In this document: positions 414 through 2,387 of the stretch, in pieces
Layout: each line of letters begins with the position of its first letter
How positions within the stretch are numbered: position 1 is the stretch's first letter
IMG/VR virus record: IMGVR_UViG_2609459833_000014
Span: 1 to 4,087 of that record
Length of the DNA: 4,087 nucleotides
DNA from: a virus
Lineage: Duplodnaviria > Heunggongvirae > Uroviricota > Caudoviricetes
Strand: one strand, 5' to 3'
Notes under the pieces: generated by a model
Told to the model about the DNA's origin: nothing
The model's input: the letters and a program-made list of their open reading frames with translations, nothing else
Database searches by the model: none
Made by a program: the position numbers and the translations under genes

Positions 414-2387
414 ATGGCATTTAAACACTATGACGTGGTCAGGGCATCATCGCCGTCAGACCTCGCAGGAAAACTGACGCAAAAACTGAAGGAAGGCTGG
501 CAACCCTATGGTAGTCCGATTATCTCAAACGCGGGTTATGGTGCTGAATTTATCCAGGCTATAGTCGCTGAAGGGGATATGACCTCTCCGGTAGTTTCAC
601 CGGGGGGAGATGGTACCCGGACTGTTGTTGTTGAACCAGAATATTACTTTGTCATTGCGCTGGCCGGACAGTCAAACGGCATGGCGTATGGTGAAGGCCT
701 GCCGCTGCCGGAGACATATGACCGTCCGGACCCGCGTATTAAACAGCTGGCGCGTCGCAGTACGGTGACACCGGGTGGTGCGGCCTGTGCATATAACGAC
801 ATCATTCCGGCGGACCACTGCCTGCATGATGTGCAGGATTTGAGCCGTTTTTCTCATCCGAAAGCCAGCGCAGAGCAGTATGGGTGTGTCGGACAGGGAT
901 TGCATATTGCCAAAAAGCTGTTGCCCTTTATGCCGGAAAATGCGGGTATTTTGTTAGTGCCGTGCTGTCGTGGTGGCTCTGCGTTTACAGCCGGTGCTGA
1001 CGGAACGTTCAGTGAAAGTTCAGGAGCGTCGGATAAATCTGAACGATGGGGCGTTGATAAGCCGTTGTATAAAGACCTGCTGACACGCACTCAGGCCGCG
1101 CTGAAGGCAAACCCCAAAAACATACTGCTTTGTGTTGTCTGGATGCAGGGCGAGTTTGATTTAAAACAGGGAGCGTACGCCAGTCAGCCCGCCATGTTTG
1201 ATGCCATGGTGGAAAAATACCGTTCTGACCTGGCGGGAGTATCCGGTCAGTGCGCTGGTGCTTCTCCTTCTCTGGTGCCCTGGATTTGTGGTGACACGAC
1301 GTACTACTGGAAGGAGACGTATTCAGCGCAATACGATGCCGTCTATGGCGCATACAAAACCAAAGCCGGTAAAAATATCTTCTTTGTGCCGTTTATGATG
1401 GATGACAATGGTCAGAAAGTCGGGACCAATGAACCGTCAGAAGACCCGGATATTCCGGCTATCGGGTATTATGGTTCCGGTGGACGAACGGATGCGAAGA
1501 GCTGGACAACATCCGATCGTAAAACCCACTTTGGTTCATGGGCGCGTCGCGGAATTATTTCCGACCGTCTGGCAACAGCCATTCTTCTGCATGTGGGCAG
1601 AGTGGCAGATTTTGTTTCCGGGAAAGTGACAAAAGCCGCGGTTTCTTCAGGCGGAGGCGTATCGCAACCAGCACAGGAGAGTGGCGATACTCAGCCTGAA
1701 TCCGTTGTCCCGACAAAGATACAGTCAGTGCTGGCTTATGATGCGAATGCGGAAAATGCCGATCTGGCTTCGCAGGGCTGGACGCTGACAGATGTCAAAA
1801 ACACGCTGGTCAGTGACAGTGGTTCAGGTAAAAAAGCCCTTCGTCTTGAAAAACCAGAAAATGGTCTTGCACAGAAAAAGACCTGGAAAGTATCGCACGC
1901 AATTGATGCCGGTAAGGGGAAGGAGCTGTTCGATAACGGCGGTGAAATCACGCTGCGCTTTAAAATCCCCGATGATGTATCTCTCAATGCTTCTGCAAAT
2001 CAATATTCTGCGGGTATTTACTGGCGCGGTAGTGGATGGCCGGGAGCGGAATCAGAGGAGGGTTATATTGCGGCCTTCTATCTGCAGACTGATAAAACAA
2101 ACATCAATGTGATGTATCATGCAAACACCACATCACAGCGGCTTGGTAGTTATGGTCCGTTCGATCACGACTGGCACACGCTGACTTTCCGCTTCCCGGG
2201 TGGTGGCTCGCTGAACGTCACGCCGGTGCTTGATAATGCAGCAGGAAAACCGTTTACGCTGACCAGATGGACGAATGCAGCCTTTGAGGCCAACGCGCTG
2301 GCAATTACGGATATTACCGGAAATGCGGCAACTTACCCTGTGCTGATTGAAAGTCTTACTGTTGGTGTGAATGCCGTAGCAGCATAA
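414..2387 (+). CDS. nanS-p: Prophage-encoded sialate O-acetylesterase of the NanS-p type (9-O-acetyl-N-acetylneuraminic acid esterase): DUF1737-like N-terminus, SASA/SGNH-hydrolase core, C-terminal beta-rich putative carbohydrate-binding domain
   Basis: 657-aa ORF with good SD. Residues ~75-400 resemble chromosomal NanS/YjhS as I recall it (YYFVIALAGQSNGMAYGEGLPLP...PRIKQLAR...PCCRGGSAFTAG...WMQGEFD...GDTTYYWKE...GYYGS...HFGSWARRGIISDRLA). Block I GQSN has the candidate nucleophile Ser87 (codon 672..674 = tca); block III-like WMQGEFD is at aa 243-249; candidate Asp368/His372 lie in SDRKTHF. A Gly/Ser/Pro-rich linker (aa ~411-433) precedes a ~225-aa C-terminal domain. The position between upstream region and lysis genes matches the Stx-phage L0105/NanS-p locus. 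Confidence 0.88.
   Translation: MAFKHYDVVRASSPSDLAGKLTQKLKEGWQPYGSPIISNAGYGAEFIQAIVAEGDMTSPVVSPGGDGTRTVVVEPEYYFVIALAGQSNGMAYGEGLPLPETYDRPDPRIKQLARRSTVTPGGAACAYNDIIPADHCLHDVQDLSRFSHPKASAEQYGCVGQGLHIAKKLLPFMPENAGILLVPCCRGGSAFTAGADGTFSESSGASDKSERWGVDKPLYKDLLTRTQAALKANPKNILLCVVWMQGEFDLKQGAYASQPAMFDAMVEKYRSDLAGVSGQCAGASPSLVPWICGDTTYYWKETYSAQYDAVYGAYKTKAGKNIFFVPFMMDDNGQKVGTNEPSEDPDIPAIGYYGSGGRTDAKSWTTSDRKTHFGSWARRGIISDRLATAILLHVGRVADFVSGKVTKAAVSSGGGVSQPAQESGDTQPESVVPTKIQSVLAYDANAENADLASQGWTLTDVKNTLVSDSGSGKKALRLEKPENGLAQKKTWKVSHAIDAGKGKELFDNGGEITLRFKIPDDVSLNASANQYSAGIYWRGSGWPGAESEEGYIAAFYLQTDKTNINVMYHANTTSQRLGSYGPFDHDWHTLTFRFPGGGSLNVTPVLDNAAGKPFTLTRWTNAAFEANALAITDITGNAATYPVLIESLTVGVNAVAA

Follow-up and report, generated by a model that had tools for sequence, protein, structure and literature searches.

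Domain Organization of the Esterase Gene

The window, which is the whole stretch of 4,087 nucleotides analyzed here (positions 1 to 4,087 of the Caudoviricetes record IMGVR_UViG_2609459833_000014), carries a gene for a large three-domain esterase. Its sequence indicates that the product is very probably an intact, divergent allele of the known prophage NanS-p sialate O-acetylesterase family. The gene is a single long open reading frame (ORF) with an ATG start, and it encodes 657 amino acids plus a stop codon. As the first-pass annotation had noted, the gene has its own Shine-Dalgarno sequence, GGGAGGA at 402-408, 5 nt ahead of the ATG at 414. The gene and its parts are as follows.

414..2387, plus strand: coding sequence of the NanS-p-type sialate O-acetylesterase (Pfam, structure matches, identity to WP_016237845.1, PHROG 143)
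414..575, plus strand: DUF1737 domain, residues 1-54, putative capsid-hexon anchor (Pfam, identity to phi24B, model)
576..635, plus strand: linker 1, residues 55-74, DMTSPVVSPGGDGTRTVVVE, predicted to be disordered, 20% identity to phi24B
636..1607, plus strand: SASA/SGNH type II esterase core, residues 75-398 (3PT5 match, Foldseek, invariant residues)
1608..1721, plus strand: linker 2, rich in Gly/Ser/Pro/Gln, about residues 399-436, predicted to be disordered
1722..2384, plus strand: DUF6645 lectin-like jelly roll, putative carbohydrate-binding module, residues 437-657, about 221 residues (6YP6, Foldseek)

Three Pfam matches, each exceeding its curated cut-off, cover the protein. DUF1737 (PF08410) covers residues 3-53 (E=6.2e-17, 61.7 bits against a cut-off of 24), SASA (PF03629) covers residues 83-274 (E=1.4e-9), and DUF6645 (PF20350) covers residues 508-618 (E=5.8e-27). 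An ORF of 657 codons with three domain matches above threshold is far beyond chance. PHROG 143, a family with no function label, matches the full length of the protein (E=4.5e-299), and no NCBIfam model matches it. The family assignment made by the first-pass annotation from the letters alone, with a SASA core between DUF1737 and a C-terminal domain, is thus borne out by Pfam and by matches to solved structures. The motifs that it named are also found in the ORF, namely GQSN at residues 85-88 (Ser87), WMQGEFD at residues 243-249, and DRKTH at residues 368-372 (Asp368, His372). No hydrophobic N-terminal signal sequence is found when the protein sequence is read directly.

The protein is common in E. 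coli and is identical to RefSeq WP_016237845.1, which is annotated as a 'SASA family carbohydrate esterase'. The exact sequence is present in 850 index blocks of public assemblies, and its 90% cluster has 387 member sequences. At a DNA identity of at least 97.5%, the allele is found in about 20 of 5426 complete E. coli genomes and also in the phages PhiR12_3 and PhiR5_2. The gene is of a kind already known.

Esterase Core and Catalytic Residues

The core is closely related to the chromosomal NanS (YjhS) of E. coli, whose crystal structure is known (3PT5). Residues 71-391 match this protein with E=3e-118. An AlphaFold2 model was built from an alignment of 30 sequences and searched against the PDB with Foldseek; it aligns with 3PT5 at a target TM-score of 0.82 and with 56% identity across the structural alignment. 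NanS catalysis is carried out by Ser19 and His301, with Gln18 in the oxyanion hole, and the enzyme does not have the catalytic Asp of the SGNH triad (PMC9063846 citing Rangarajan 2011). Gln18, Ser19, and His301 of NanS align with Gln86, Ser87, and His372 here. In the DNA, the nucleophile Ser87 is encoded by nt 672-674 and the base His372 by nt 1527-1529; Gln86 is the oxyanion residue, and the QGE block occupies residues 245-247. Among 30 diverse NanS-p homologues, Q86, S87, N88, G246, E247, D249, R369, and H372 are invariant (30/30). The alignment to NanS and this conservation make the assignment of Ser87 and His372 as the catalytic residues well supported.

The first-pass annotation had listed Asp368 beside Ser87 and His372 as a candidate of the SGNH core. 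The latter two stand, and Asp368 as the canonical acid is not supported. A canonical SGNH block V has the form DxxH, whereas the sequence here reads D368-R-K-T-H372. Asp368 is therefore at i-4 from the histidine, and the i-3 position is taken by Arg369. Asp368 also aligns with a Leu in NanS, and it was rejected as the canonical catalytic acid. The residue is Asp in 29 of the 30 homologues and Glu in the remaining one, so it may have some other role. The NanS-type blocks GQSN (85-88), QGE (245-247), and RKTH (369-372) are all present, and the block V pattern, as read from the sequence, fits the NanS subgroup rather than a canonical Ser-His-Asp triad. In the proposed mechanism, Ser87 and His372 would act as a dyad, Gln86 and a Gly would form the oxyanion hole, and O-acetyl groups would be removed from Neu5,9Ac2 and from mucin-bound sialic acids.

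C-Terminal Domain and Linkers

A Gly/Ser/Pro-rich linker followed by a C-terminal domain had been read from the sequence, and both are confirmed here, at about residues 399-436 and at residues 437-657, respectively. The domain had been called the least understood part of the protein. This description no longer applies, since the fold of its homologue has been solved: the corresponding domain of phi24B vb_24B_21 is a lectin-like jelly roll (6YP6; PMC10462455; PMC8065619). Residues 437-653 match 6YP6, deposited as 'NanS-p', with E=1.3e-43.

The structure prediction suggested in the first-pass annotation returned lectin-like folds. In the AlphaFold2 model the C-terminal domain has a predicted local distance difference test score (pLDDT) of about 80-90, and residues 54-72 (pLDDT below 50) and 396-434 are disordered. 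Foldseek aligns the modeled domain with 6YP6 at a target TM-score of 0.88. The next match is 2W68, the sialic-acid-binding domain of the V. cholerae sialidase, with a target TM-score of 0.69-0.75 and E of about 1e-8. Further matches are other ConA-like lectin folds, such as clostridial neurotoxin Hc and calreticulin. Four aromatic residues of the phi24B domain, Y510, Y515, Y540, and F611, have been proposed to bind sugar (Pascal et al., PMC10462455). All four are kept here, as Y531, Y536, Y556, and F624.

The model and these residues support the prediction of a glycan-binding jelly roll, which probably keeps the enzyme on glycans. Binding of sialic acid in particular is a lead only. 2W68 is the best structural match outside the domain's own family, but the two share only 11-12% identity and ConA-like jelly rolls are common, so the match may hint at specificity but cannot be taken to show homology or sialic-acid binding.

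DUF1737 and a Possible Role in Capsid Decoration

The N-terminal domain may tie the protein to the phage particle. According to a preprint, the phi24B homologue gp84 is an abundant virion decoration protein and is among the most intense virion bands. Its DUF1737 forms a hexamer that plugs the pore of the central hexon on every face of the T=9 capsid, with a Tyr42 'tooth' as the anchor, and the protein is processed after phage release, with SSP motifs proposed for self-processing (bioRxiv 10.64898/2026.04.10.717836). The DUF1737 of the window is 81.5% identical to that of phi24B gp84 over residues 1-54 and retains Tyr42 and Gly54. In the model it consists of one helix and three strands (strand 5-11, helix 14-26, strands 30-38 and 45-52), matching the preprint's description of the phi24B domain. 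By analogy with this homologue, it would form hexamers that plug the central capsid hexons through Tyr42.

The identical protein is encoded at ten genomic places, and nine of these have a phi24B-type head module, with a P22-type portal and a 404-residue major capsid protein (MCP). The MCP from locus L004, the sole one compared, is 95% identical to that of phi24B.

The loop that carries Tyr42 occurs in distinct variants among the homologues. Alleles with an AGYGAEF-type loop (the window allele, P0014, P0058, P0072, and phi24B) are accompanied by phi24B-type heads in all five cases. Those with an ITPYTLM-type loop (P0108, P0041, and P0084) all occur with lambda-type Nu1/GpA/gpW/portal_2 heads. 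P0017, with yet another loop, lies among the late genes of a P2-type phage. Phi24B-type heads are thus found with 5/5 AGYGAEF-type alleles and with 0/4 alleles of other loops. Two groups were left out of this comparison: the SYTDDGAA loop variant (P0096 and P0087), since both contigs stop before the head genes, and P0003, which has two convergent copies beside an integrase in a setting other than a late operon.

A broader proposal can be built on this pattern, and we put it forward as tentative and somewhat unlikely as a whole. DUF1737 would be an exchangeable capsid anchor whose loop is matched to the head type of its carrier (AGYGAEF with phi24B-type heads, ITPYTLM with lambda-type heads, and another loop in a P2-type phage). 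Such phages would display a lectin-esterase on their heads, like the viral hemagglutinin-esterases, and the strongly divergent C-terminal domain could give this allele a glycan specificity, and so a niche in mucus, different from those of the Stx-phage alleles.

Comparison with Known Systems

Every NanS-p allele tested from EDL933 and O104:H4 has esterase activity on Neu5,9Ac2 and mucin O-glycans; these alleles allow growth on Neu5,9Ac2 and are induced with stx and the late genes (PMC8065619; PMC10462455). These NanS-p proteins, for example z1466 of 933W in EDL933, share family and architecture with the window protein, at a protein identity of about 58-59% for the Stx-phage alleles. Homologues of Stx phages are 52-59% identical to it (tblastn), and at the DNA level Stx phages show 77-80% identity over about two thirds of the window.

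The closest described system is phi24B gp84 (vb_24B_21), which has the same three-domain architecture and the same place in the late operon. Outside DUF1737, identity to gp84 is 73% in the esterase core (residues 75-398) and 48% in the C-terminal domain (residues 437-657), whereas the linkers are unrelated, with both at 20%. Furthermore, stx is absent upstream in the relatives of the window, and in the window itself the insertion sequence IS1 takes the place of the upstream leader. Chromosomal NanS shares the homologous catalytic domain and its Ser, His, and Gln, and is likewise without the canonical DxxH Asp. In contrast to the window protein, it is a single-domain enzyme with neither DUF1737 nor a lectin-like C-terminal domain, and it is encoded in the chromosomal nan regulon.

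Viral hemagglutinin-esterases (HEs), such as influenza C HEF and the HEs of coronaviruses and toroviruses, also combine on a virion an SGNH 9-O-acetyl-sialate esterase with a lectin, and are functional analogues only. HE and HEF have the SGNH fold (PMC9063846), and the sequence relationship to the window protein extends no further than the SGNH superfamily. The lectin of HE is inserted into a type I SGNH fold, whereas the type II fold of the window protein is followed by a jelly roll and preceded by a putative capsid-plug domain.

Genomic Context

Downstream of the esterase, the window contains the following features.

2392..2431, minus strand: hairpin CCGCCAGC...GCTGGCGG with an adjoining A8/T8 run, just past the esterase stop, predicted intrinsic terminator
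2529..2723, plus strand: gene for a DUF1378 small protein (Pfam E=7e-36)
2749..3039, plus strand: gene for a DUF826 protein, likely start ATG 2749 (Pfam, PHROG 311)
3116..3331, plus strand: P21-type class II holin S (Pfam E=5e-35)
3336..3869, plus strand: phage lysozyme R, the endolysin (Pfam E=8e-25)

The start of the DUF826 gene is annotated publicly as either 2635 or 2749. The DUF1378 gene overlaps the long ORF 2575-3039, in which the DUF826 match starts only at residue 59, and ATG 2749 best fits this domain boundary. On the minus strand, U8 follows the stem of the hairpin at 2392-2431, which is directed toward the 3' end of the esterase gene; phi24B keeps the hairpin despite the divergence of the flanking coding sequence. 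A search of the window against Rfam gave no match at E<=0.1. Two strong terminator-like hairpins are found on the plus strand at 3049-3077 and 3960-3992, with 12 and 14 pairs, respectively, and a T-rich run after each. The former precedes holin S and the latter follows lysozyme R, and both lie inside the expected single late transcript.

The gene order is the same in the ten places that encode the identical protein: a Q-like gene, a gene-free leader of about 1.45 kb, the esterase, DUF1378, DUF826, S/R/Rz, terminase, the P22-type portal, a 335-residue protein, and the 404-residue MCP. The head genes have been lost in one of the ten. The relatives with the window allele are stx-less phi24B-like prophages. 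Their native leader (L004 8550-10000) contains 11 terminator-like hairpins against 1.3 expected, which fits a Q-antiterminated late transcript. Three of the hairpins in the L004 leader are of the AGCCCCTCTCCGGAGGGGCT type and nearly identical, and one promoter-like site on the minus strand occurs there twice; these repetitions suggest an internal repeat. No tRNA genes are found in the native upstream leader of the relatives, unlike in the equivalent region of Stx phages.

Since the esterase lies in the late operon of intact relatives, the protein would be made on induction there and would leave the cell at lysis. The released protein would be free and probably also displayed on phi24B-type capsids.

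IS1 Insertion Upstream of the Esterase

The left end of the window differs from the relatives described above. It carries part of an insertion sequence.

1..395, minus strand: left part of IS1A (InsA Pfam match, IS1A identity, homology break at 395/396)
65..340, minus strand: insA (InsA Pfam domains, E=5e-31 and 1e-21)
373-395: IS1 terminal inverted repeat IRL, GGTGATGCTGCCAACTTACTGAT as reverse complement
396..413, plus strand: retained native leader TCCCTGCCGGGAGGAATA with the Shine-Dalgarno sequence at 402-408 (read directly)

Positions 1-395 are 98-99% identical to IS1A across thousands of E. coli records, and homology to the esterase-bearing relatives begins at 396. IS1 thus stops 18 bp short of the ATG and leaves the Shine-Dalgarno sequence untouched. 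The retained leader at 396..413 is identical to that of strain UCPROB-002. The gene lies in the late region, where DUF1378, DUF826, S, and R follow it. The first-pass annotation missed the IS1 at 1-395, owing to which the native context on the upstream side is not present here.

The junction between IS1 and the esterase was not found in the 5426 complete E. coli genomes, among which coverage of the window by any one genome does not exceed 91%. An exact search with 38 nt of the junction returned nothing from the one-genome-per-species contigs or the JGI metagenome contigs. Because the junction is absent from every searched collection, the insertion looks private and is probably recent.

With IS1 18 bp upstream, the esterase is separated from its native terminator-rich, Q-dependent leader. 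A consensus scan found no sigma-70-like promoter on the plus strand upstream of the esterase. The sole promoter-like site nearby is that of insA on the minus strand (388->361), which is directed away from the esterase. A hybrid promoter at the junction was considered by eye and rejected: TTGGCA at 382-387 lies 22 nt from AATAAT at 410-415, the only -10-like hexamer near the junction, and the latter overlaps the start codon. Transcription of the esterase would now have to come through IS1, and we infer that continued expression depends on read-through from outside the window. IS1 may thus have uncoupled the esterase from phage induction in this strain.

Weighing of Alternative Roles

Taken with the late-operon position in intact relatives, the domain and residue evidence points to a NanS-p allele that is probably virion-associated as well as released. 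Several points weigh against this reading. The activity of this allele is predicted from tested alleles that share just 58-62% protein identity with it. Its block V, RKTH, differs from those reported in Stx2a phages, which read RSSH, RASH, or RPTH (PMC10462455). The AlphaFold2 model is of moderate quality, with a mean pLDDT of 68.7 and low confidence in parts of the esterase core. The role in capsid decoration goes back to one unreviewed preprint on a different allele, the window has no head genes, and it may belong to a defective prophage. Neither linker of the window protein contains an SSP motif; linker 1 has TSP/VSP and linker 2 has SQP/TQP. By sequence, this absence lowers the claim of self-processing and leaves that of anchoring. 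Finally, the correspondence of loop and head type comes from a small sample (5 versus 4 clusters), and it fits a capsid-matched anchor and co-inheritance equally well.

The first-pass annotation regarded the gene as accessory cargo. The site, with the Q region on one side and the S/R lysis genes on the other, is that of a gene in a lambdoid prophage. The label is now doubtful, given that the phi24B homologue is a virion protein. If the gene were purely lysogenic-conversion cargo, the protein would have no role in the virion; lysis of a subpopulation would free the enzyme, and surviving lysogens would use Neu5,9Ac2 from mucus. This is the established interpretation: nanS-p lysogens grow on Neu5,9Ac2 and recombinant NanS-p de-O-acetylates mucin (PMC8065619), and the gene adjoins the variable region that holds stx and other morons. 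However, the block from the esterase through DUF1378 and DUF826 to S and R is conserved, and what changes is the cargo ahead of it, which can be stx, methylases, or restriction genes, or can be missing. Moreover, phi24B gp84 is abundant in virions with its DUF1737 resolved on the capsid (bioRxiv 10.64898/2026.04.10.717836), and the DUF1737 loop type follows the type of head module. Cargo as the whole explanation appears rather unlikely to us; cargo and virion roles are not mutually exclusive. A virion esterase could also act on bacterial surface polysaccharide, such as O-acetylated O-antigen or capsule, and thereby aid adsorption or access to a receptor. A review raises such a substrate as an open possibility (PMC8065619), and virion display is consistent with it. 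We consider it improbable, since the catalytic domain is 56% identical to NanS, a dedicated Neu5,9Ac2 esterase, every tested NanS-p allele acts on sialic acids (PMC8065619), the nearest structural match of the C-terminal domain beyond its family is a sialic-acid-binding module, and the protein would sit on the capsid, not the tail.

A different kind of alternative concerns this strain only. The gene may be a silenced or stranded remnant, intact and unexpressed, with IS1 severing it from transcription that depends on pR' and Q, and perhaps from the remaining prophage as well. The IS1 end close to the ATG, the lack of a plus-strand promoter-like site upstream, and the divergent orientation of insA, with its promoter pointing away, all agree with this, and the absence of the junction from the searched collections fits a recent private event. 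Against it, the ORF is identical to a common allele with its Shine-Dalgarno sequence intact, and the downstream lysis genes are also intact. In lambdoid antitermination, RNA polymerase modified by Q is resistant to terminators, and, provided that the prophage upstream has been retained, it could transcribe across IS1. Silencing is a possibility that we hold doubtful.

The reading of a probably virion-associated NanS-p allele has consequences mostly for annotation. With NanS-p esterases, E. coli lysogens can draw on the O-acetylated sialic acids of gut mucus, and the preprint adds capsid decoration to this role. The present analysis indicates that a divergent allele circulates among commensal and extraintestinal E. 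coli, in phi24B-like prophages that lack stx, and that its catalytic residues and those proposed to bind sugar are intact. To call the gene 'accessory cargo' is probably to describe it too narrowly; it is better read as a late-operon gene for a probably virion-associated lectin-esterase than as free cargo. For the capsid-display model, the match of loop to head type offers a modest lead that can be tested.

Other Carriers of Three-Domain Esterase Genes

Related genes are also found in other settings. The genome CP077225.1 carries both the window allele in a phi24B-type prophage and P0084, with its ITPYTLM loop, in a lambda-type prophage (L005 and L015). P0017 (L018 10001-11938) is located in a P2-type phage, where it is flanked by the lysis genes and by gpR, the gene for tail completion; three-domain esterases therefore also occur outside the lambdoid phages. 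At L016 10001-14029 and L017 5743-9771, two DUF1737-SASA-DUF6645 genes (659 and 629 residues) lie convergently, tail to tail, beside an integrase. ParA, DnaB, and primase genes are found near this pair, which is a context other than a late operon. The pair may represent a different kind of mobile element that carries NanS-p-like genes.

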